DNA of 64,000 nucleotides from an uncultured Spirochaetota bacterium (GTDB lineage: Bacteria > Spirochaetota > UBA4802 > UBA5550). Below, piece after piece: positions 7,322-61,625 of this stretch. The stretch's first letter is position 1. Each line of letters starts with the position of its first letter. The DNA lies in contig CAVSZF010000007.1 of the NCBI GenBank assembly GCA_963732395.1, forward strand, positions 761,571 to 825,570, read 5' to 3'. Below the pieces are notes generated by a model that saw only the letters and a program-made list of their open reading frames with translations, did no database searches and was not told the DNA's origin. The position numbers were made by a program, and so were the translations under genes.

Positions 7322-8728
7322 ATGAAAAAAATAGTATTTATTGAGCCGAAGCCACCGGGGGGACACATTTTCAGCAAGTTCGGATTGCCACGGATTGGCA
7401 TTTTTATCCTCGCCACGATGATGAGAGACCGGGGATGGGATGCGGAAGTGATGGTAGAAGAGATGCAGAGGATTGATTATAAGGTCCTTTCTGGGGCGGA
7501 TATCGTCGGTATATCGACCATTACACCAACTGCGATCAATGCCTATGACATAGCGGACAGAGTAAGGAGTATGGGAGTAACGGTCGTCATGGGGGGGCCC
7601 CACGTGACGTTTTTACCGGAAGAAGCCCTCGGTCATGCAGACTACGTCATCAGGGGTGAGGGGGAAATTCCCCTGATGCGGTTTATCGATGAATGGGAGG
7701 GCGGTGGTTGCTATAAAGAAGTCCCGAACCTCTCGTTCATGTCGGATGGAACTCCTGTTCATAATACGATTAGGGAGTTCGAAAATGACCTTGATCGCTT
7801 TCCCGCGGCAGATTTTTCCCTTATGAAGATCGACAGGCCCCTCAAGGTGATACCGATGCAGACCTCCCGGGGCTGTCCCTATGACTGCTCGTTTTGCTCC
7901 GTCACGGGGATGTTCGGGAAAAAGTACCGCTACCGCTCGACTGAACACATCATGGAAGAGCTCAGAAAGTACCGGGACTCGGGGCGGATGATATTTTTCT
8001 ATGACGATCATTTCGCTGCGAATAAAAAACGGGCGAAGGAACTCCTCCTGGCCATGATTGACGAGGGGTTTCGTTTCAAGTGGTCGACCCAGGTCCGTGC
8101 CGATATTGTGAAGGACCTGGAATTGATGGACCTGATGAAGCGAAGCGGATGCCATACCCTCTTCATCGGCTTCGAATCGTTCAACCCGGAGAGCCTCAAA
8201 GAGATGAAGAAGAAGCAGACGGTCGATGATATCATACATGCAGTCAAGGTGATTCATTCCTACGGTATACATATTCACGGCATGTTCGTACACGGATTCG
8301 ACAGCGATACGATGGATTCGGTCGCCATGACCGTGCGCTATGCGAAAAAAATGAGAATAACTTCCGCACAGTTTCTTCTCCTGACCCCCTTCCCGGGCTC
8401 AGAATTCTATGATTGTGTCAATGACAGGATCCTTTTCAATGACTGGTCGATGTATGATGCCCACCATGTTGTGTACCAGCCCAGGAATTTCTCACCCCAT
8501 TCCCTCCAGCTGTCGCAGGTATACAGTCATGAAAAATTTTACTCGGTCCCGGAAATCTTCAGGAAGCTGATAGGCAGAAGGTGGATCGCATCCGGCATCG
8601 GAATCTATGCGCGCCTTATCAATAGAAAATGGAAGAAGGAGAACAAGGAGTATCTCCGTCTGCTTCAGGAGATCTCAGGCGGGGCAGGCCCGATTGGCTG
8701 GTTACTCAAAGAAGAGACAAGGGTCTGA
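7322..8728 (+). CDS. B12-binding domain radical SAM protein (class B rSAM)
   Basis: N-terminal cobalamin-binding Rossmann-like region. Radical SAM CxxxCxxC motif (SRGCPYDCSFCSV). 468 aa, typical for this family. AT-rich 280-bp leader upstream. Confidence 0.8.
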   Translation: MKKIVFIEPKPPGGHIFSKFGLPRIGIFILATMMRDRGWDAEVMVEEMQRIDYKVLSGADIVGISTITPTAINAYDIADRVRSMGVTVVMGGPHVTFLPEEALGHADYVIRGEGEIPLMRFIDEWEGGGCYKEVPNLSFMSDGTPVHNTIREFENDLDRFPAADFSLMKIDRPLKVIPMQTSRGCPYDCSFCSVTGMFGKKYRYRSTEHIMEELRKYRDSGRMIFFYDDHFAANKKRAKELLLAMIDEGFRFKWSTQVRADIVKDLELMDLMKRSGCHTLFIGFESFNPESLKEMKKKQTVDDIIHAVKVIHSYGIHIHGMFVHGFDSDTMDSVAMTVRYAKKMRITSAQFLLLTPFPGSEFYDCVNDRILFNDWSMYDAHHVVYQPRNFSPHSLQLSQVYSHEKFYSVPEIFRKLIGRRWIASGIGIYARLINRKWKKENKEYLRLLQEISGGAGPIGWLLKEETRV

Positions 8729-34925: not shown

Positions 34926-35387
34926 ATGAAAACGAGTAGAGCCCGGGTATTCGCTGTGATTGCATTAATCGGGTTCGCGCTGATGTATCCCGGGAGGGGT
35001 GGTGCAGACGGGCGGGCAGGCAGGATCTTCCTTGACAAGCATTTCTTCACCCAGTTGCGACGCACGCCGCCGATTATGAGGGATGCCTTTATTGAGGAGA
35101 GGCTTAACGCCATCATTCAGGCGAGGGGCGTTGTCGTATCGATTAATACATGCCCGAAATACGAAAGGAATTACCGGATCGTCCTTGAGGACAGGGATGC
35201 CAAAGTGCAGAATATGAAGATAACCTATTACCTCTATGCGGAGAGCCGGGAATCAATCGCCATGATTGCAGAAAAGGGGCTGATCGATTTCAGCGGTCAA
35301 CTTGTCGCGTACACGCCTGTCACTGCGAAACGGTCCTCCTATATTTTTGATATCGTACTGGAAAAGGGGGCGATGTTGATTGAATAA
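34926..35387 (+). CDS. Secreted hypothetical protein (153 aa)
   Basis: N-terminal signal peptide MKTSRARVFAVIALIGFALM. Sits 9 bp after htrA and overlaps the next gene's start. Confidence 0.5.
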   Translation: MKTSRARVFAVIALIGFALMYPGRGGADGRAGRIFLDKHFFTQLRRTPPIMRDAFIEERLNAIIQARGVVVSINTCPKYERNYRIVLEDRDAKVQNMKITYYLYAESRESIAMIAEKGLIDFSGQLVAYTPVTAKRSSYIFDIVLEKGAMLIE

Positions 35388-35397
35388 GCGGGGCGAA

Positions 35398-38300
35398 ATG
35401 ATCGACCGTGGAAGGAGGAAAAAAGTGGCATGGAGAACCCTTCTCCTGATCGCCGCCCTTTTCGCATGCCTTGCCCATACCCTTCCGACTGCTGCGAAGA
35501 CCACGCCTGAAGGGTATGAGCTGAAGATGATCAGGGGTTTCACCGAAGGCGATTACCCGGCAGTATATGCCTCTTTTCGAATGATGCTCGCGACCTACCC
35601 CGACCATCCCCTGTCCCGCATCTACTATAGCAGGCTTCTTGAAATGGCTGACCTCTTCGGAACCACGGCCGTGGAGGAACTCGTGTTGAAAATGAAAAAA
35701 ACCATCAAAGCCCGTGGCGGTCGTAACGCCAATGCCTGCCTGATTGCCCTGGACTGCGTACATGAGGCCCTCCTCTACAGGTATGATGCTGAAAAGGCGA
35801 AAAGAATCACCGATGAATTGAAACCGGTCAGGGAATGGGCTCTTATAGGGCCCTTCCGCCGATACGGATCCGGTGATATGGAGTATCGATTCATGTCTGA
35901 ACTGGTATCTGATGGGGAAGGAAATGAGCGCGAAAAACGGATCAGTATCGAAGAATATGATGGAAGGTTGAGGCCAGGCAGGTTTGTCGGACCCGGGGAG
36001 GGCGTGGTCTACGCACGGGCCTCCTTTGTGACAGAGGACGAGGTGATGGTTCGCGTATATTGTCGCGGGGACTACCATGCCATGATCAACGGCCGATATG
36101 TAGGAGGAAACGTACCGGGACGGCGGAGGAACCTCAGGATATTCAGCGTCCGCGACACCCGCCGTGTTACGCTTCTACTCAAGCTTCATCTCGGGGACGG
36201 CGAGGAAGGTGTAAGGGTGCTGATTACCGACAAAAGGGATGCCGTACAAAGCCCCTCCATCGACAATGAAAGCTCCTTCACGGAGGAGTGCGCCGTGTCC
36301 GAGGAAGATGAGTTCCCCCATGCCCATTTCATTGAAATGGCCCGCCGTGATCCCGCATTCGCATACGCCAGGCTTGGTATCCGACTCGACGGCCTTCAAA
36401 GCGAAGAGGCCGTCGAGTATTACCGGAAATCTCTCAATGCGAAGCAGGATATATTGATCTCATATCTCCTCGCTGCTTCCTTACTCGCAGGAAAGGACAA
36501 AGACATTGAGCCAGCGGGACATAGCGAGGGGTGGCGTCTGATCGAGGAAATATATGACGAACGCCCGGGATTCGCACCCGCCGCCCTGAAAAGGCTGGAT
36601 CGGCTGATTGAAGGCAGAGAGAACAGAAGGGCCCTTCTCGAGGGAGAACTCCTTGTCCTGTCATCGCCCCGATTCCCCTATGCCCGGCTTGCGCTTCTTC
36701 AACTCTTGGACAAGACCGGCAGTGACCGGGAGTTTCTTGCGGCTACGATAAAATTAAGAAAAGATTTTCCGGACTCCCACCTGGTGACAGAGGCGGAGGC
36801 TGAATATTACCGGGACCGGAACAGCACCAGGTACCTCGAATCATGCATTGCCCTTGCCGGAAGAGCCTATACGCCGCGGCGTGGACGAATTGCGGCAGCG
36901 GAGCTTGTTTCGCGGGGGGAGTATGGCGCCGCTCGAGAATTGATACAGCGCCTCAATTTCAACAACGATCTGGTACGGGAGATGGTAGTAGCGGCCATCA
37001 GGACCGGGGATTTTCCGACTGCAAGGAACATTATATTCGGCGCGATACTTCGAAGGGAGGATCCGTGGTTCTATGAGGCCCTTGGACGAATGGATATGGT
37101 GCGCGGGGACGATCCATCGATGTATCTCTACAAACTTTTAAGTATGGACCCTTCCCGTTTTGAGGTGGCCGATTATCTTCGTTATCTCGATACCGGTGAT
37201 ATTACGGGCCCGCCGGGGATCTTTCTGGATCAGGACGCAGTCACGGGCAGGCTTCGGACCGCTCCTGCCGATGGCCGCCATTCATCAACGATCCTCTATC
37301 GGGGAAGGACGTTTCTGCTGCAGAATGATGGGAGCAGCAGGGCCTTCTGCGAGGATATCATTCACCTGTCGGATGCAAAGGGGGTATGGCGTTATGGAGA
37401 GATCAGGATCCCCTGCCGGGGGCGTTTCAACCCTGTCAGGGTAAGGGTATATAATAAACAGGGTATCGTCGCTAATTCCTATACCTTCCGGAAGGAAGGT
37501 GACGAGGTATGCGTGAATATCGCCTCCCTCGGGAGAAACTCAATCATTCATCTCGCGTATAGTATCGACAATGCGGTTTTCACACCCGGGGGCGGACGCC
37601 TCTTTTCATACCCCCCGGAGTATCTCCAGGGATATAATGAACCGGCAGTCGCCATTTTAATTAAGGTAATAACTCCTGAGGAAATGGAAGTCGATTTCCG
37701 TTTCAGGGATGAGATACCCGTAGAGTCGATCGCCTCTGACGGGTTTCGGTACCATACAATAAGAATGGGGGGGCTTTCGTCAGTTGAAAAAGAGCGATTA
37801 TCCGGTGACCGGGGCAATTCCCTCGCTTTTTATTCTTTTTCAACGATGAACGGGTTCGAGGATTTTTCGGCATTGCGCAAGGGTAGTATCGGGGTGGGGG
37901 AAAATGGTACGGCGGAAAAGGCGACATCATTGAAGAAAGAGGGGCTGGAGAAGACGGTTGCCGCTGTGTATGATTTCGTCTCAAGGGGCATCGATCTCGA
38001 TGAGCGTGAGTCAGGATTGACGAGATCCCCTGAAAACATCCTCAACGAGAGGCACGGCACCGCGGAGGAGAAGGCCATGCTCGCCCGGGCATTGCTCGAT
38101 CGCCTCGGAATCAGGTCGTATCTCGCCTTTGGGAGGGACCGTTTACAGCCGGTAATGACCGGCTATATGTTTCATGAATACTATACCGATTGTCTGCTCT
38201 TTGTGCCCCTTGACAGGGAGAACTCACTCTGGCTCGATTTTTCCAGCCGAAATTTCGCCTGCGGCACCGTTTCGGGCCGTATCGACGGAACGGAGGCCTC

Positions 38301-38985
38301 CGTCATGATAAACGGCTCGCATCATATGCGAAGCGTTCGGAGCAGTGTGGCTACCCTGGTCGGAGGAGAGTACCGCCTGCGGATCAAGGAGGACGGCGGG
38401 GTGCAATGCGCGATCAAGATTTCCTTCAACGGATCGAGCGCCGATGCGCGCTCCTCCTTCAGGGATACCCAGAGGGATTCACACCGTGCGGAGGAAACGG
38501 CGCACCTCTACGTGGAAAAGGCACTGCCGGGTTTCAGCATGGACGGTTATAGGGTGCGCAACCTGGATGATTGCGAAAAACCGCTGGTTCTCGAAGTGGA
38601 GGGGGCCGGGATTGGCGCGTTAATCGAAGCTGAGCGTCTAATCTTCAGACCGGTGCTGAGGGGGAGCGCGATTAATGGTTATGTCAGCTATCCACGACGA
38701 TCGAGCCCTCTGGTGATCGAGACAGGGGTGCATGAATCAGATCGTTACCGATGGACCCTTCCCGAATCGTTCAGGGGTGCTGAATTGAATAAAAGGAGGG
38801 CGGTGCGGGGAAGGTTCGGTAACGCTTCGATCATCATCAGGAAAAAAAAAGGGTCAGTGTCGCTGTATGCGAAAAAAACCGTACATATCGACGCCGCGGT
38901 GATAGGGCCCGATGAATATCCCGATTTCCTTGATTTCTGTCGTGAACTTCAGCGTCTCGAAGGAGAGACGATAATCTTGGAATGA
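35398..38985 (+). CDS. Large secreted DUF3857/DUF3858-type protein with transglutaminase-like core
   Basis: About 1195 aa. Signal peptide (RGRRKKVAWRTLLLIAALFAC). TPR-like helical N-terminal third. TGase-like block (NERHGTAEEKAMLARALLDRLGIRSYLAF) in which the expected Cys is not present. Start set to ATG 35398. The track used TTG 35380. Confidence 0.7.
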   Translation: MIDRGRRKKVAWRTLLLIAALFACLAHTLPTAAKTTPEGYELKMIRGFTEGDYPAVYASFRMMLATYPDHPLSRIYYSRLLEMADLFGTTAVEELVLKMKKTIKARGGRNANACLIALDCVHEALLYRYDAEKAKRITDELKPVREWALIGPFRRYGSGDMEYRFMSELVSDGEGNEREKRISIEEYDGRLRPGRFVGPGEGVVYARASFVTEDEVMVRVYCRGDYHAMINGRYVGGNVPGRRRNLRIFSVRDTRRVTLLLKLHLGDGEEGVRVLITDKRDAVQSPSIDNESSFTEECAVSEEDEFPHAHFIEMARRDPAFAYARLGIRLDGLQSEEAVEYYRKSLNAKQDILISYLLAASLLAGKDKDIEPAGHSEGWRLIEEIYDERPGFAPAALKRLDRLIEGRENRRALLEGELLVLSSPRFPYARLALLQLLDKTGSDREFLAATIKLRKDFPDSHLVTEAEAEYYRDRNSTRYLESCIALAGRAYTPRRGRIAAAELVSRGEYGAARELIQRLNFNNDLVREMVVAAIRTGDFPTARNIIFGAILRREDPWFYEALGRMDMVRGDDPSMYLYKLLSMDPSRFEVADYLRYLDTGDITGPPGIFLDQDAVTGRLRTAPADGRHSSTILYRGRTFLLQNDGSSRAFCEDIIHLSDAKGVWRYGEIRIPCRGRFNPVRVRVYNKQGIVANSYTFRKEGDEVCVNIASLGRNSIIHLAYSIDNAVFTPGGGRLFSYPPEYLQGYNEPAVAILIKVITPEEMEVDFRFRDEIPVESIASDGFRYHTIRMGGLSSVEKERLSGDRGNSLAFYSFSTMNGFEDFSALRKGSIGVGENGTAEKATSLKKEGLEKTVAAVYDFVSRGIDLDERESGLTRSPENILNERHGTAEEKAMLARALLDRLGIRSYLAFGRDRLQPVMTGYMFHEYYTDCLLFVPLDRENSLWLDFSSRNFACGTVSGRIDGTEASVMINGSHHMRSVRSSVATLVGGEYRLRIKEDGGVQCAIKISFNGSSADARSSFRDTQRDSHRAEETAHLYVEKALPGFSMDGYRVRNLDDCEKPLVLEVEGAGIGALIEAERLIFRPVLRGSAINGYVSYPRRSSPLVIETGVHESDRYRWTLPESFRGAELNKRRAVRGRFGNASIIIRKKKGSVSLYAKKTVHIDAAVIGPDEYPDFLDFCRELQRLEGETIILE

Positions 38986-54987: not shown

Positions 54988-55017
54988 TTGACATATATAC
55001 TAATGTATGCTTATTGT
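54988..55017 (+). promoter_or_regulatory. Candidate sigma70-like promoter of lexA
   Basis: TTGACA at 54988-54993, 18-bp spacer, TATTGT at 55012-55017. The spacer contains the ATACtaatGTAT short palindrome. I could not confidently identify a LexA box. Confidence 0.35.
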
Positions 55018-55052
55018 ATGTTTATATTGAGATAAGATTGGGGGTTGGTGAA

Positions 55053-55673
55053 ATGGCGCGGAAACAGACGGTAAGACAACTGACCACCAAGCAGGAAAAT
55101 ATTCTTGAGTTTATAAAGAAATCGATAAAAGGCGACGGGTTTCCCCCAACGGTCAGGGAAATCGGTGACAGATTCAACATTACGGTCAAGGGCGCCTATG
55201 ATCATGTCAAGGCCATCGAGAAAAAAGGCTTTATAAAAATGGAGCAGAATAAATCACGCGCCATTGTGATCTTGCATGAGGAAAATGAAACCCCGACGGA
55301 CGCAATCAATATTCCTCTCCTTGGAAGAATCGCAGCCGGATCTCCCATTCTCGCGGCTGAAAATGTCGAAGAGTATCTGAGTTTTCCGCGTACGATGTTT
55401 AAAAGCGGGGACTTTTTCGCCCTTCATGTAAAGGGCGATTCCATGATCGAAGGCGGAATCAATGACGGCGACATCGCCGTGATAAAAAAACAGAATACCG
55501 CTCAAAACGGCGACATAGTCGCCGCGCTTATCGAAGAGGAGGCCACTCTGAAACGGTTTAAAGCCGCGGGGGGAAAGGTCCACCTTATACCGGAGAACCC
55601 AGCGTATAAACCGATTATCACTACCGATGTGGCCATTCTGGGGAAGTTGACCGCCATATTCCGACGGTACTGA
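55053..55673 (+). CDS. lexA: LexA repressor
   Basis: N-terminal winged HTH. Ala-Gly autocleavage site (RIAAGSPILA). S24 peptidase Ser/Lys dyad (GDSM ... K). About 206 aa from ATG 55053. Confidence 0.9.
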   Translation: MARKQTVRQLTTKQENILEFIKKSIKGDGFPPTVREIGDRFNITVKGAYDHVKAIEKKGFIKMEQNKSRAIVILHEENETPTDAINIPLLGRIAAGSPILAAENVEEYLSFPRTMFKSGDFFALHVKGDSMIEGGINDGDIAVIKKQNTAQNGDIVAALIEEEATLKRFKAAGGKVHLIPENPAYKPIITTDVAILGKLTAIFRRY

Positions 55674-55753: not shown

Positions 55754-55887
55754 TCAATAAGGGTGTGCGGTCATAATGGACCGACCCTTTACGGGCGCGC
55801 AAGGGGATACTGGACGGCGGCTGCGGGATAATCATGACGGATTGTCCGCACATCCCGCCCGTGGATGGCAAAAGGGGGGACAGGATA

Positions 55888-58782
55888 ATGGCAAAGAGAA
55901 TTCTCATGCCGGGCATATTGCTCCTTGCCTGTACGGTCGGTTTTTCCAATCAGTGGCATGATGAAGCCGATCGATTCTGGAACGAGGGCCAGAAGCTGAA
56001 GAAGGATTTGAAATACAGGGAGGCGATACAATTCCTGCGAAGGGCCGTGGCTGCGGAGATGAAAAACGAGAATCCCCGCGCTGATGAATTAATCGCTCAG
56101 TTCAACGAGCTCGGCATTCTATATGGCATGACAGGTTCCTTCGAGAGCTCTCTGCACTACCACCAGATGACCCTTAAGGCGGCCGAAAAATACGGGAGGG
56201 AAGATGATGAGGTGATGGCGCTCATCAATATCGGAAGGGTCAGCACCAACCTCGGGCGGCACCGGGAAGCCATTGACATCTATGGCCGGGCGCTGGAGAG
56301 GTCCAGGAAGTACGGCTTTGGGGACAAGGAGGTGCGTGTCCTGAACGATATGGCGGGAGCCCTGAGGGCAATGAATGATTTCGAAGGAGCCCTTGCGCGC
56401 TATACCGAAGCCCTCGATGCCGCGAAGAAGGCGGGGGGTGCGGTGCTGGAGGCGGCGATCATCAGCAATATCGGTACGCTCTATTTTTTCAGGGGGGATT
56501 TCGAGACCGCCCTGAAGGAATACGGTAGAGCTCTCGACATCGACAAGTCAAGGGGGGACGACATGGCCCTTTCCATAGGCATGAACAATATGGGAAGCGT
56601 GTATACAGCCATCGGAAAGTATGGGGAGGCCCTCAACTATTTTGAGAAATCGCTGGAAATCGACACCAGGCTGAAGAATGGCATCAACATCGCATCGCGT
56701 TTAAACAGGATAGGGGATATCTACTTCCGTGTCGGAGACGGCGCAAGCGCGATTGCGCATTTTAACCGATCTCTCGAAATCAACAACAGGATCAACAACA
56801 GGATCAACGTGGCGGTGCTGAACGCCAGCATCGGGCGTGTGTACGAGTCGATGGGCAGGTTCGAGGAATCCATTGATTATTACATAAAGGCACTCGCCCT
56901 AAACCGGGAGTTGGAAAAGGAAACCTATGTGGCCGAGCGATTGTCAGATATCGGTCTCCTTTACGAAATGCGTGGAAGGCACGGAGAGGCTGCCGATTAC
57001 TTTGCAAGGGCGCTGGAACGGGGAATCGGCACCGGAGGGAAGGAAAAGACAGCGGCGAACCTGAGCAACCTGGGACGTGTGATGACGGCGTTGAAGCGCT
57101 ATGATGTCGCGCTCGATTATTTTCGGCAGTCCCTGGAAATCTATCGAGAGACGAAGGATTCCATCTCGATTGCCGACGACCTGAAGAATTGCGGGATTGT
57201 CCACTACCATCGGAAGGAGTGGGACCTGGCGATCGACAGCCTTCTACGGGCGAGGGGCTCGATTGAGGGGACGCCCCGGACGATCTATCCGGTCAGGGAC
57301 GAGGTCGAAGGCGAGATGTACCGCTGGCTGGTCGCCGCGTATGTAATGTCTCAGAGACACGAGATGGCATTCGAGGCGAACGAACGGTTCTGCATTAACC
57401 GAATGTACTCGCCAGTTCATACCTGGAAACCGGCAGGGCCGGACCCTGCGGCCGGCTATGACAGGCTCAAGGACCGACTAGGGGCCAGCGGGGCGGCGGT
57501 GGTTTATTCGAATGTCTCCTGGGACGACCCACAGGTTGTCTGTATCAGGCGTGAAGGATCATCGGGCCATGTGCTGGACAAAGCCGCAACGGTGAAAACG
57601 ATATACAACCATTTTGGCCGCGAGATTGAACGCTTCATGGGGGAAAAAAAGACCGATATTATTTTCACAGTAGGACAGAGGTCGCGAAGCGATCATTATT
57701 ACATAGAGTTTGAAAAAATAATCAATTACTACCGGTATCTGGCCTCGAAAAAATATATCGGGAGCGATGAAAAGGATGCTTTGCGTCGCATCGGGAAGGC
57801 CCTCTACGACCTTCTTTTGGGAACAATCGGCCCGGCAATAAAAGGAAAGACGGAACTGATCATTCAGCCGGATGGCGTCCTTTCCACCCTGCCATTTGAA
57901 ACCCTGATCATGCCGGATGGAAGATTTCTCGTCGAGAAGTACATTATAACCTACGTGCACTCCCACACCATAAGCGCAGCCGCGGCGAAAAGAAAATACA
58001 ATGCCGGGAGGAAAGAACTGATGCTGATCGGCGGTGTCACCCATCCGTCAAAATCACTTCCCGGAGTCCTCGAATCGGTCCGGCACTATGAGCTCGTTAA
58101 ACAGAGAGCCGTCGATGCCATCATGAAAGGGAGGGACACCATCGGGCTGTACGGATTTTTCGGTATAGATGACATCGGTGGTCCCGGCGGCGACATAAAG
58201 GAAATCGAGTTACTGGATGGCGCCTGGAAGAACCATGACATACTCAGGGACGAGGACGTCACCGAGGGCGGGATACTGGGCGCCTCTCTCGCGGGGGCCT
58301 TTTCCGGGTACAGGATTCTGCATGTCGCCACGAGATCCGTCGTGGTTCCGGAGGCGCCGATTCTGAGCGCGCTGGTGCTCTCCAGCGAAAAGGGTGTTTC
58401 AGGTGGGAATGGCCTGCTGAATATCAGAAAAATCGCCTCTCTTAAGATAGCGGCCGATCTTGTGACCCTGTCGAACGTATTCCTGCCGCCTGCGCGTTAC
58501 AGCAAGGGGGAGGGAATATGGAGCCTCTGCGGTTCTTTCATGGATGCGGGAGCTCGGAACGTGGCGATATCGATCTGGCCTGTCGAGGGAGCGGTAAAGA
58601 TGGCACTCATAAAGCGGGCGTACCGCCTTGCACTGGAGGAGAAACTGCCCTACTGCAGTGCCTTTGCACGAGCGAAACGCGAGTTCATTACTCAAAAAGC
58701 CGATGACAGTTCCCCGGGTGGGAGTCCGGGGAACTATTCTTCCCCCTATTTCTGGGGATCTTTCATGCTGTATGGATACTAG
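55888..58782 (+). CDS. TPR-repeat / CHAT-domain (caspase-like) lipoprotein
   Basis: Start at MAKRILMPGILLLACT (lipobox). About 12 TPR-like repeats. C-terminal CHAT-like fold (LHVATRS...DLVTLSNVF...SLCGSFMDAGARNVAISIWPV) with the expected His-Gly and Cys positions apparently occupied by Arg-Ser and Asn. Confidence 0.8.
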   Translation: MAKRILMPGILLLACTVGFSNQWHDEADRFWNEGQKLKKDLKYREAIQFLRRAVAAEMKNENPRADELIAQFNELGILYGMTGSFESSLHYHQMTLKAAEKYGREDDEVMALINIGRVSTNLGRHREAIDIYGRALERSRKYGFGDKEVRVLNDMAGALRAMNDFEGALARYTEALDAAKKAGGAVLEAAIISNIGTLYFFRGDFETALKEYGRALDIDKSRGDDMALSIGMNNMGSVYTAIGKYGEALNYFEKSLEIDTRLKNGINIASRLNRIGDIYFRVGDGASAIAHFNRSLEINNRINNRINVAVLNASIGRVYESMGRFEESIDYYIKALALNRELEKETYVAERLSDIGLLYEMRGRHGEAADYFARALERGIGTGGKEKTAANLSNLGRVMTALKRYDVALDYFRQSLEIYRETKDSISIADDLKNCGIVHYHRKEWDLAIDSLLRARGSIEGTPRTIYPVRDEVEGEMYRWLVAAYVMSQRHEMAFEANERFCINRMYSPVHTWKPAGPDPAAGYDRLKDRLGASGAAVVYSNVSWDDPQVVCIRREGSSGHVLDKAATVKTIYNHFGREIERFMGEKKTDIIFTVGQRSRSDHYYIEFEKIINYYRYLASKKYIGSDEKDALRRIGKALYDLLLGTIGPAIKGKTELIIQPDGVLSTLPFETLIMPDGRFLVEKYIITYVHSHTISAAAAKRKYNAGRKELMLIGGVTHPSKSLPGVLESVRHYELVKQRAVDAIMKGRDTIGLYGFFGIDDIGGPGGDIKEIELLDGAWKNHDILRDEDVTEGGILGASLAGAFSGYRILHVATRSVVVPEAPILSALVLSSEKGVSGGNGLLNIRKIASLKIAADLVTLSNVFLPPARYSKGEGIWSLCGSFMDAGARNVAISIWPVEGAVKMALIKRAYRLALEEKLPYCSAFARAKREFITQKADDSSPGGSPGNYSSPYFWGSFMLYGY

Positions 58783-58784
58783 AA

Positions 58785-59306
58785 ATGGACAGGGCAATGA
58801 GAAGGACCGCCCTTGTCGATTCATCATCCGCCATAATTCTTTTCAAAGCGGGTCTCTTCGAATATACGGCGGAGTATTTCCGCATCGTAATCCCCGCCTC
58901 GGTTTTCGAAGAGCTGACAGTCGGGGGGCGCTCGGGGTCGGAGGAATTCGCGCGATACCGTGCGGACGGGAGCATCCAGGTCAGGGATACGGACCCGTTA
59001 TTGACGGTCGAAGGGGATATGGGCGGTCTTGACACAGGGGAGCGGGATACCATCCTCCTTTACGAAGCGGGATCGGGGGAAGTGATACTTCTCGACGACG
59101 GGAAGGGGGCCGCCATCTGCAGGCGCCGCCGCATACCCCATATCAACGCCCTGCTTGTTCCCAGGATATTTCGCCGGGCCGGCACTATCAACGTAGAGGA
59201 ATGCGAGCGACAGATGGCCACCATTATGATCCATGGCAGGTATTCCGATTGGGTGGTCGACTACGCCCGATCATGCCCGGATGACGACCTCGCGGATTTT
59301 GCGTGA
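58785..59306 (+). CDS. PIN-like nuclease-fold protein, DUF3368/COG2405 family
   Basis: N-terminal ALVDSSSAIILFKAG and central GERDTILLYEAGSGEVILLDDGKGAAICRRRRIPHINAL match the DUF3368 pattern (D...GE...LLDD). Starts 2 nt after the CHAT stop. Confidence 0.65.
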   Translation: MDRAMRRTALVDSSSAIILFKAGLFEYTAEYFRIVIPASVFEELTVGGRSGSEEFARYRADGSIQVRDTDPLLTVEGDMGGLDTGERDTILLYEAGSGEVILLDDGKGAAICRRRRIPHINALLVPRIFRRAGTINVEECERQMATIMIHGRYSDWVVDYARSCPDDDLADFA

Positions 59307-59327: not shown

Positions 59328-61625
59328 TTATACGGCCTGAATGATCTCCGGGTGGATCTCACCAATCGACGCGCAGCCTGTCAGGATCATGGCCGTCTCA
59401 ATCTCTTTTTTTAAGTGATTCAGGTAGAAGGAAACACCCTCGGCGCCCATGCCGACCGCGGCGATGGCAATGGGCCTACCGATCAATACGGCGTGCGCTC
59501 CGAAGGCCAACGCTTTCAGAATGTCCACACCCTCACGAAATCCGCCATCGACAAGAATTATCAGGTCGTCCTTCACTTCTCTCGCGATCTCTCCGAGTAC
59601 GTCCATTGATCCCATCATTTCATCGAGGACCCGACCGCCGTGGTTTGAAACGATGATGCCCCTTGCCCCGAGACGTGCGGCTGCCTCTGCATCATGGACG
59701 TTCATGATACCTTTTAGAAAGAAGGGGAGGGAAGTCGATGAAATGATGTCCCTGAGATCGGAAAAGCTCTTCGGTCCTACCGATTGATTCTTCATCGCCA
59801 TGGTCTTGAATACCACGGCGTCGATGTCCATGCCGACGGCGAGAGCACCCGCTTCCTCGGCCGCCCTGACGCGGGTGATTATTTCATCATTGTCACTGCG
59901 GGGCTTGAAGATGGGAATGCCCCTGCCCCCGAATTCAGAGATCGCACGAAGGCCGATCCTGTACTTGTCGGGAGTAGCCCCGTCCCCCACAAGGGCCAGG
60001 GTCCCGGCCCGGGAGCAGCCGCCGACAACCGCACGGTTGTAATCGAGTTCGTCGATGGCGCCGCCCATGTTTGTTACGGTTCCCGTGATAGGCGCGGCCA
60101 GAACCGGGAGGGCCAGATTGATATCGAGGAGCGTCGAGGATGTATCGGGTCTGGTGACTTCATGGATGAGGCGTGTCCGAATTTTATATTGCTTGAGGGA
60201 TGCAATATTGCGGCGGAATGACTCGCCGGTACCGGCACCACCCATGCCGGGCACTCCCGTGGGGCAGTCACGACCGTCGCAGTTCTTGCACACATAACAG
60301 ATTTTTTTGAATTTCTCCTTGGCAGAGAAATTGATGGTTTCCAGGGATATCTCCGATTCCTCGATCATGTCGAATTCAAGAATACGACGGCATTCCTCAA
60401 CATGTGCCACCGCCTCATCGAGGGTTTGACCCACGGCAATGATATGACCGGCTTTCTCGACGTTGGAGCGGGGGAGGGAAACTCTGTCTCCCTGCCTGAC
60501 GTTGAGAAAAATTTCCTCTATGCCGGGGACCTTCAGCGCCTCCTCGAGACCGGTGATTTTTCTCACGATGCCGGGTCTTGTGATGATCGCGCGCTCGATG
60601 GCGACACGTTTCATGACCGGCTCAAGATTTCCGGGTTCCTGTCCGAGTGCGACCTCAATGGCCGCCTTCATCAGGTCAACCCCTGTGGAAAGCGGGTACG
60701 TGTAGGCCGACATGAAACCGCCGGAAAGTCGGGCCGCTATTTCGCCTACCATGGGGCCCTTTTCGGTTATCTTGATGTCCCCCTTCGCGGCTCCGATATC
60801 AATTCCGAGGGCCCGAATGCCCTGTTTCATCACCTCGCATGCCGCGGCCTGCACCTCGCGCGGCAGTGCGGAGGGCATGTCGTGCCCCGTTTCAATGAAG
60901 TAGGGGGGATATTCGATAATCCGGTCCGCGATTCCTGTGATGGTAATTTCATTCTGGTATATGATGGCATCGATGGACAGCTCCGCGCCCTCCATGTATT
61001 CTTCCATGATCAGCTCGCCGCTGGGAGAGGCATTTTTGGCGAACTTGAATGCGTCAGGGAGCTGGTTCAGATTATCGACACGCATGACGCCCCGAGCCCC
61101 CATGTTGTCCGATGGCTTGATGACTATGGGAAACTTTAAAATTTTTCCCGCTTTTTTTGCATCGGAAAGCGACCAAACGGGAAGAAAAAGGGGCGATGGT
61201 ACGCCATGCTCTTTCATACGCATTCTCATCTTGATCTTGTTGGTGGCGGCCTCGGCGTCGTCGAACTTTATGCCCGGGAGGTCGAGGGTGTTGGCCACGG
61301 CGGCGACCGCCATGGAGGCGTCGGTCCCGACGGTGAGAACTGCGCTAATGGGTGTAATCTCGTTCTGTTGCCGGGCAGCGCGTACGGAACCCTCAATGTC
61401 GCGGGTACTCATGATGATGGGAATATCGGCGTCCCTGATGCCTAGCACATCCGGGTTATAGTCGCTCACTATGACCTGGTACCCCATCTTTTTCGCAGTG
61501 AGGATCGCGGGAAGCTGGAGAAGCCCGCCGCCGATTATCATGATTGTCTTTTTCAATTCCGGCTCCTCGTCAGGGCGGCCCGACGGCGCGGTGCCTGGGG
61601 GTTGGTGTGCTGCCGTAAAGATCAT
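59328..61625 (-). CDS. Fusion protein: ATP-grasp ligase domain + Cx2Cx2Cx4C linker + FMN-dependent alpha-hydroxy-acid dehydrogenase/oxidase-like TIM barrel
   Basis: N-terminal ATP-grasp (KKMGYQVIVSDYNPD, FPIVIKPSDNMGARG, EEYMEGAELSIDAI). Cys cluster CYVCKNCDGRDC at 60264-60299. C-terminal FMN_dh motifs (IVSNHGGRVLD, ILVDGGFREGVDILKALAFGAHAVLIGRP). An alternative start at 61541 (MIIGGG) is possible. Confidence 0.8.
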   Translation of the reverse strand: MIFTAAHQPPGTAPSGRPDEEPELKKTIMIIGGGLLQLPAILTAKKMGYQVIVSDYNPDVLGIRDADIPIIMSTRDIEGSVRAARQQNEITPISAVLTVGTDASMAVAAVANTLDLPGIKFDDAEAATNKIKMRMRMKEHGVPSPLFLPVWSLSDAKKAGKILKFPIVIKPSDNMGARGVMRVDNLNQLPDAFKFAKNASPSGELIMEEYMEGAELSIDAIIYQNEITITGIADRIIEYPPYFIETGHDMPSALPREVQAAACEVMKQGIRALGIDIGAAKGDIKITEKGPMVGEIAARLSGGFMSAYTYPLSTGVDLMKAAIEVALGQEPGNLEPVMKRVAIERAIITRPGIVRKITGLEEALKVPGIEEIFLNVRQGDRVSLPRSNVEKAGHIIAVGQTLDEAVAHVEECRRILEFDMIEESEISLETINFSAKEKFKKICYVCKNCDGRDCPTGVPGMGGAGTGESFRRNIASLKQYKIRTRLIHEVTRPDTSSTLLDINLALPVLAAPITGTVTNMGGAIDELDYNRAVVGGCSRAGTLALVGDGATPDKYRIGLRAISEFGGRGIPIFKPRSDNDEIITRVRAAEEAGALAVGMDIDAVVFKTMAMKNQSVGPKSFSDLRDIISSTSLPFFLKGIMNVHDAEAAARLGARGIIVSNHGGRVLDEMMGSMDVLGEIAREVKDDLIILVDGGFREGVDILKALAFGAHAVLIGRPIAIAAVGMGAEGVSFYLNHLKKEIETAMILTGCASIGEIHPEIIQAV

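Follow-up and report, generated by a model that had tools for sequence, protein, structure and literature searches.

What becomes of a CHAT domain once the residues that define it as a protease are gone? The question is raised by a gene in a 64,000-nucleotide (nt) stretch of DNA from an uncultured Spirochaetota bacterium (contig CAVSZF010000007.1 of assembly GCA_963732395.1), hereafter the window, which encodes a protein made of TPR repeats and a CHAT domain and is directly followed by a gene for a PIN-like protein. Annotation usually makes caspase-like proteases of CHAT domains, and it is as such that they are now often discussed in the context of bacterial signalling and defence. A preliminary description of this DNA, made from its letters alone, had suggested that the His-Cys dyad of this particular domain is substituted and that the protein could be a sensor or adaptor coupled to the PIN nuclease. 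We find that the dyad has been lost throughout a clade of orthologues and that the gene is maintained with or without its PIN neighbour, and we consider it probable that the product is a conserved, exported TPR-pseudoCHAT protein that works without catalysis as a binding scaffold, trap or regulator.

Both motifs of interest lie in the longest frame at this position, an open reading frame (ORF) of 982 amino acids (aa) on the forward strand (55834-58782), and residue numbers follow this frame throughout. Translation likely starts at M19 (nt 55888), 18 codons downstream, because the signal-peptide signature described below is placed there; the starts of the orthologues correspond to this residue, and a G-rich, Shine-Dalgarno-like stretch (aaaaggggggacaggata) stands immediately 5' of its ATG. 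The frame from M19 has 964 codons, and the 18 additional codons upstream of the start used by all of the orthologues (55834-55887, MTDCPHIPPVDGKRGDRI) are probably not translated. About nine TPR repeats stand ahead of the CHAT domain in the same protein (Table 1), and an NCBIfam scan returned partial matches only, all of them to TPR families. The CHAT domain itself had been correctly recognized, as shown by a match to PF12770 (E 1.3e-34, 120.5 bits against a cutoff of 24) that covers profile positions 2-288 of 289, and it is the only one at this location, since a second CHAT gene was sought within the window and none was found.

The catalytic columns were identified with homologues taken from a 5.8-billion-protein collection and from 1.84 billion representatives searched exhaustively with phmmer (40,594 hits), the alignment being composed of the best 150 of these 40,594 hits together with earlier hits; 157 of the relatives in it are canonical. 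Close homologues align without gaps over both motifs, such that the canonical LHFA(V/T)HG and DFVNLSACETGLG correspond to LHVATRS and DLVTLSNVFLPPA in the window protein. The His and Cys columns are each 100% conserved in the canonical relatives (157/157), and the window protein has neither residue. Where a catalytic His within an H-G motif was looked for at the end of a strand, R834 (nt 58333-58335) is found, with S835 in place of the following Gly, and where a catalytic Cys within an SAC motif was looked for at the end of the next strand, V882 (nt 58477-58479) is found, with N881 in place of the preceding Ala. Both columns also align with the dyad of the TPR-CHAT protein DdvA (H862 and C907), an equivalence taken from a 22-sequence profile alignment that was obtained only at E<=10. 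The first His of LHVATRS, H830, is conserved in the canonical proteins too and occupies a column distinct from that of the catalytic His and of DdvA H862. Thus, the replacement of His-Gly by Arg-Ser had been read correctly by eye, and so had the loss of the Cys, but the residue at the Cys column is Val rather than the Asn that had been named, an error of one position that the preliminary description had allowed for. The two motifs exist as described, at coordinates slightly different from those given: LHVATRS is aa 829-835 (nt 58318-58338, not 58321-58341) and DLVTLSNVF is aa 875-883 (nt 58456-58482, not 58465-58485). The surrounding signature AGARNVAISIWPV is retained, as had been noted, with G906, S913, and W915 common to the canonical relatives. 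The Cys in SLCGSF, which had been put forward as an example of a residue that might overturn this assignment, is C899 (nt 58528-58530), and it aligns with a canonical Thr.

The loss of the dyad has not been accompanied by the loss of the fold. An AlphaFold2 model of aa 623-982 based on 22 sequences has a mean predicted local distance difference test score (pLDDT) of 87.5 and a predicted template modelling score (pTM) of 0.90, and in it the caspase/separase-like fold is retained. R834 and V882 (model residues 212 and 260) are located near the ends of the consecutive long strands 204-214 and 254-261, and a dyad at the ends of two consecutive strands is the expected topology of the caspase-hemoglobinase fold. 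When the model was compared with the PDB using Foldseek, the top match was Csx29, the TPR-CHAT protein of type III-E CRISPR (E 6e-11), followed by DdvA, the separases, gingipain, and SAVED-CHAT. A sequence search of the PDB with the single domain gave nothing relevant, and the 22-sequence profile gave nothing at E<=1.

Besides the window gene there are 14 further orthologues (33-63% identity), which occupy the same locus wherever their flanks can be read and which were found by looking up genomic contexts and scanning the GTDB species genomes once, in metagenome-assembled genomes (MAGs) labelled as Spirochaetota or Leptospirales, representing at least 12 species-level genomes. A near-identical copy (P0001, 99% identity) is present in an independent NCBI MAG, where its public annotation is "CHAT domain-containing protein." Across the 15 orthologues the Cys column contains Leu (six), Thr (three), Val (two), Ile (two), Met (one), and Ser (one) but never Cys, and the His column contains Arg (seven), Gly (two), Ser (two), Lys, Thr, and Cys (one each), the His being kept in a single protein. 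The nearest relatives (P0002, P0026, P0027, P0028, P0035, and P0092) also lack the dyad, and when 167 CHAT domains are placed in a neighbour-joining tree the dyad-less proteins form a single group; a SAR324 relative (L017), which is 27% identical and not syntenic, keeps both residues. The gene order is constant at 12 loci, with a dnaJ-like gene (-), lexA (+), the TPR-CHAT gene (+), a gene for an ATP-grasp/flavin mononucleotide (FMN)-dehydrogenase fusion (-), glpX (+), and a GAF-SpoIIE gene (+). At these loci the flanking housekeeping proteins are 64-87% identical to those of the window, compared with only 33-60% for the TPR-CHAT protein. The gene is an orthologue fixed at one position, between the dnaJ-like gene and lexA on one side and the ATP-grasp/FMN-dehydrogenase gene and glpX on the other, in this group of uncultured Spirochaetota, and the loss of its catalytic residues predates the diversification of the lineage. 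Outside of the clade, P0145 (936 aa) keeps the His and has Ile at the Cys column (LSAIQTG), which suggests that the nucleophile of CHAT domains has been lost independently more than once.

The gene is not decaying: the frames are intact in all of the orthologues (950-986 codons), and dN/dS is low. Nei-Gojobori dN/dS values are 0.13-0.24 for the CHAT part and 0.05-0.18 for the TPR part, and the best-behaved, unsaturated pair (L008/L009, dS 0.26) gives 0.24 for CHAT versus 0.18 for TPR; hence the CHAT domain is still under purifying selection. What has changed is where the constraint lies. Conservation of at least 85% is seen at 19 positions in the canonical relatives but not in the clade, and these positions include the GGAxY, WxNLPG, TH, and ACETGLGxxY motifs together with G897, Q900, and T922. 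At these 19 positions the mean pairwise identity is 0.92 in the canonical proteins (0.52 domain-wide) and 0.24 in the clade (0.41 domain-wide), so that what was once the most constrained region is now below the constraint of an average site. A few residues have become newly fixed in the clade. In the loop and helix start that follow the former Cys, W896 is present in 15/15 orthologues, R/K891 in 14/15, and C899 in 13/15, and the canonical residues at these columns are Val (92%), Gly (52%), and Thr (74%), respectively. In a second motif, E747 (14/15), S748 (15/15), R750 (13/15), and H751 (12/15) are shared at columns that are variable in the canonical relatives, and the secondary structure of the AlphaFold2 model would place this motif in a helix. 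G774 and G966 are likewise clade-specific and newly fixed.

The protein is also predicted to leave the cytoplasm. In all 15 orthologues a variable N-terminus of 19-26 aa begins with basic residues, continues into a strongly hydrophobic run (the best Kyte-Doolittle mean over 12 residues is 2.2-3.1), has in most cases a small residue at position -1, and stops directly before the near-invariant N-Q-W-H-D-E-A-D-R-x-W-N-E, whose opening varies as N/D-Q/E-W-H-D-E-A-D. The canonical relatives that were inspected also have signal-peptide-like N-termini. From these features we infer that the TPR-pseudoCHAT protein is exported and is periplasmic or on the surface. The LLAC of the window protein is a possible lipobox, and it is not conserved among the orthologues.

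The newly fixed residues raise the possibility that the domain has remained a hydrolase, of the protease or some other kind, and that its nucleophile and base have been relocated, for example to C899 with H751 or S748. These three residues are kept in most or all members of the clade, and in the canonical relatives they occur at the same columns in 1, 1, and 31% of the proteins, respectively. In the model, C899 would be in the first turn of the helix after the old Cys loop and H751 would open a helix of the three-helix insert, and it is a three-helix motif that lines the substrate pocket of other proteases of the TPR-CHAT type (PMC11506125). C899 and H751 are, in addition, the only Cys and His that are conserved specifically in the clade. 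Nevertheless, C899 is missing from two of the 15 orthologues and H751 from three, and the two occur together in only 11, the exceptions at positions 751/899 being Gln/Cys in L012 and L015, Gln/Ser in L018, and His/Ala in P0028. Gln is what the canonical proteins most often have at column 751, which makes His a mild change, and around the canonical site the 19 most conserved positions have been relaxed rather than re-fixed. In view of the incomplete co-occurrence and of the canonical Gln, we rate a relocated dyad as unlikely, and hydrolysis by any such route seems to us improbable. A new function of the cleft has an equally slender chance. In this case W896, R/K891, C899, and the ExxR-like E747-S748-x-R750-H751 would make up either a new site at which ligands or peptides are sensed or a Cys/His site that has been relocated, and the protein would be a caspase-fold sensor of the envelope that is tied to the DNA-damage regulon through its adjacency to lexA. 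What the evidence does bear out is the suspicion that this CHAT domain is a pseudo-protease, as the dyad is absent, no alternative Cys/His is found clade-wide, the predicted fold is kept, and selection is purifying. These are the attributes by which a pseudoenzyme is defined, namely the fold of an enzyme family, missing catalytic residues, and maintained selection.

A further proposal is that a cytoplasmic, dead CHAT scaffold responds to a signal by regulating the PIN nuclease encoded beside it, the two genes forming a sensor-effector or defence-like module. Although Pfam and NCBIfam scans of the ORF at 58785-59306 gave no match even at E<=10, a precomputed PF11848 (DUF3368) assignment is carried by 33 of its 36 homologues, and D12, E43, E86, D104, and D105 are invariant in 23 sequences. 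Because of these family matches, the conservation of the residues, and the predicted fold, we conclude that the DUF3368 protein has a true PIN fold with conserved acidic residues. With its fold and acidic residues intact it also matches a PADLOC defence-candidate family (PDC-S70, E 3.6e-11). The CHAT and PIN genes are 2 nt apart in the window, in L004 and L006 they share an overlap of 11 nt, and a PIN-like gene follows the pseudo-CHAT gene at eight of the 12 syntenic loci. At the other four (L012, L014, L016, and L018), however, the PIN gene is absent, the CHAT gene is intact, and the ATP-grasp gene comes directly after it. In L012 an 18-codon remnant of PIN (RKRALSDSSSAIILF, then a stop) is present at 7921-7974, with the CHAT stop codon on one side and the ATP-grasp gene on the other, a sequence trace indicating that the PIN gene was recently lost in that species. 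Moreover, signal peptides are predicted for all 15 pseudo-CHAT proteins and not for the PIN protein, a difference that would put the two products in separate compartments. Adjacency alone says little where the entire neighbourhood is syntenic, including the housekeeping genes glpX and lexA; a more distant DUF3368 homologue in Desulfobacterales follows a PALP-family gene with no CHAT gene nearby, and PADLOC matched no model to the CHAT protein beyond generic TPR. An obligatory CHAT-PIN pair was rejected on account of the four loci that lack the PIN gene and of the predicted signal-peptide difference, and a looser sensor-effector module is, in our opinion, very unlikely. The PIN gene is an optional neighbour and not a partner, the pseudo-CHAT gene being kept with or without it, and the coupling to a nuclease that had been envisaged for this protein does not hold. 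The DUF3368 gene is not directly preceded by a gene for a VapB-type antitoxin and could be a toxin-like gene of the solitary or orphan kind.

That the gene is a decaying pseudogene, or that the substitutions are sequencing or assembly errors, can practically be dismissed: the loss of both catalytic residues would fit a decaying enzyme gene, but the 964-codon frame is unbroken, the 14 further orthologues repeat both the architecture and the loss, contain no frameshifts or stops, and give dN/dS values of about 0.1-0.24 over all three parts of the gene, and an independent MAG carries the near-identical copy P0001.

We return to the probable role of this protein, in binding rather than cleavage. 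The protein, which is probably exported, combines a TPR superhelix with a CHAT domain that has kept the fold and lost the His-Cys dyad and most of the surrounding conserved residues, and its role would be non-catalytic. The TPR repeats and the former active-site region, with W896, R/K891, C899, and E747-S748-x-R750-H751, may bind a protein or peptide outside of the cytoplasm, and the protein may act in this way as a scaffold, trap, or regulator, as is the case with other pseudo-proteases. Such a binding role is proposed by analogy with the pseudo-orthocaspases and c-FLIP. Several points weigh against this interpretation. The protein has no known partner, ligand, or phenotype, and all of the members of the clade come from MAGs. 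The case against a relocated C899/H751 site and the new residues at the old cleft both rest on alignment columns, and the call of export on hydrophobicity and a -3/-1 heuristic. Finally, the canonical exported relatives are themselves uncharacterised.

Comparison with known systems places the protein among the putatively exported TPR-CHAT proteins but outside of each of the better described types. DdvA, an anti-sigma factor of Myxococcus xanthus (PDB 8ROT), provides a precedent for a periplasmic TPR-CHAT protein (PMC11506125). In contrast to the window protein, DdvA keeps its dyad (H862/C907), is anchored in the membrane, and has both a zinc-binding domain in the cytoplasm and an extracytoplasmic function (ECF) sigma partner, whereas the window protein has a predicted signal peptide only. 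Just ~20 aa precede its conserved mature N-terminus, which leaves no DdvA-type N-terminal domain and transmembrane segment, and there is no gene for an ECF sigma or other sigma factor among the conserved neighbours; with this short N-terminus and no neighbouring sigma-factor gene, a DdvA-type anti-sigma factor was rejected. Csx29 of Craspase (type III-E CRISPR; PDB 7Y9X and 8EEY) is an active protease of the cytoplasm that is bound to Cas7-11, and its sequence identity to the window protein is only 13%. The conserved neighbours do not include CRISPR-Cas genes (Cas7-11/gRAMP, Csx30/Csx31), and no PADLOC CHAT or Csx29 model was matched. Membership of Craspase was rejected, the conserved neighbours being the dnaJ-like, lexA, DUF3368, ATP-grasp/FMN-dehydrogenase, glpX, and GAF-SpoIIE genes.

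The closest relatives are canonical exported TPR-CHAT proteins of Bacteroidota and other phyla (P0003-P0170), which have the same domain order and 31-39% identity in the CHAT domain. All 157 of these keep HG, SACETGLG, WxNLPG, and the other cleft residues that the window clade has lost. The pseudo-orthocaspases of cyanobacteria and other bacteria belong to the C14 p20 family rather than to CHAT and have Tyr or Ser replacements (PMC6426788), and the pseudo-caspase c-FLIP(L) is likewise of the C14 p20 family (PMC7586951); neither is a TPR-fused exported protein. The VapC/Nob1-type PIN nucleases, of which DUF3368 is a subfamily, are of relevance to the ORF at 58785-59306 only, and there the upstream gene is the pseudo-CHAT gene and not one for a VapB-like antitoxin.

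Table 1. Coordinates of the pseudo-CHAT gene, its parts, and adjoining genes within the window.
Feature	Position (nt)	Strand	Evidence or remark
lexA, conserved upstream neighbour	55053..55673	+	Pfam LexA_DNA_bind and Peptidase_S24; upstream of pseudo-CHAT at 12/12 syntenic loci
TPR-pseudoCHAT gene, likeliest start	55888..58782	+	Orthologue starts match M19; Shine-Dalgarno-like stretch before ATG
Predicted signal peptide MAKRILMPGILLLACTVGFS, then conserved mature N-terminus NQWHDEADRFWNE	55888..55947	+	Heuristic over 15 orthologues
TPR repeat region, roughly aa 52-465	55987..57228	+	Pfam TPR_12 (E 6e-70, 7 stretches), TPR_1, TPR_2, others
CHAT domain, aa 652-981, caspase-like fold kept in model	57787..58776	+	Pfam PF12770
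Clade-specific motif E747-S748-V-R750-H751, predicted start of first of three inserted CHAT helices	58072..58086	+	15 orthologues
R834-S835 replacing catalytic His-Gly	58333..58338	+	His in 157/157 canonical relatives; column aligns with DdvA H862 (profile alignment at E<=10)
N881-V882 replacing Ala-Cys	58474..58479	+	Cys in 157/157 canonical relatives; column aligns with DdvA C907 (profile alignment at E<=10)
Remodelled loop and helix start after former Cys, FLPPARYSKGEGIWSLC	58480..58530	+	Replaces canonical ETGLGxxYGGEGVVGLTQ
PIN-like (DUF3368) gene, adjoining but outside pseudo-CHAT function	58785..59306	+	Starts 2 nt past CHAT stop codon

Some features of the surrounding genes are of interest in their own right. 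The gap between lexA and the CHAT gene contains no terminator-like site on the + strand and its promoter count equals the shuffled expectation, and among species this spacer varies from 95 to 875 nt without conservation of its sequence. The promoter region of lexA (54988-55035) is nearly identical in 12 otherwise diverged species (the window, L001, L008-L016, and L018), with the consensus TTGACATATA(T/A)ACTAATGTATGCTTAT..TGT(T/A)TAGAT, which includes a -35 TTGACA and an ATAC-N4-GTAT inverted repeat, and this repeat is a candidate LexA operator of the lineage. The gene at 59328-61625 (-) encodes the fusion of an ATP-grasp/L-amino-acid-ligase-like module to an FMN-dependent dehydrogenase domain, an unusual architecture of 765 aa that is 75-87% identical across the lineage, far above the conservation of its neighbours. 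Elsewhere in the window an ORF of 1201 aa (35380-38985, +) has no Pfam family at E<=1e-5.

That caspase-fold families have dead members is already known, and in the limited set of literature consulted we found no described inactive bacterial CHAT domain or dyad-less CHAT clade, which is not proof that there is none. In other respects this is ordinary pseudoenzyme evolution, mildly interesting and not surprising to specialists. What it means for the family is that in a whole orthologous clade of CHAT proteins the protease chemistry was lost long ago and the protein was kept, and its members do not belong in a count of proteases or of defence effectors. Adjacency to the PIN nuclease should not be taken for a CHAT-PIN system, and predictions of defence systems from a "CHAT plus nuclease" arrangement call for the same caution. 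The clade also provides a natural comparison for the roles of CHAT domains that do not involve cleavage, with 157 canonical (active) proteins set against 15 dead ones that differ at 19 relaxed positions and a few that are newly fixed.

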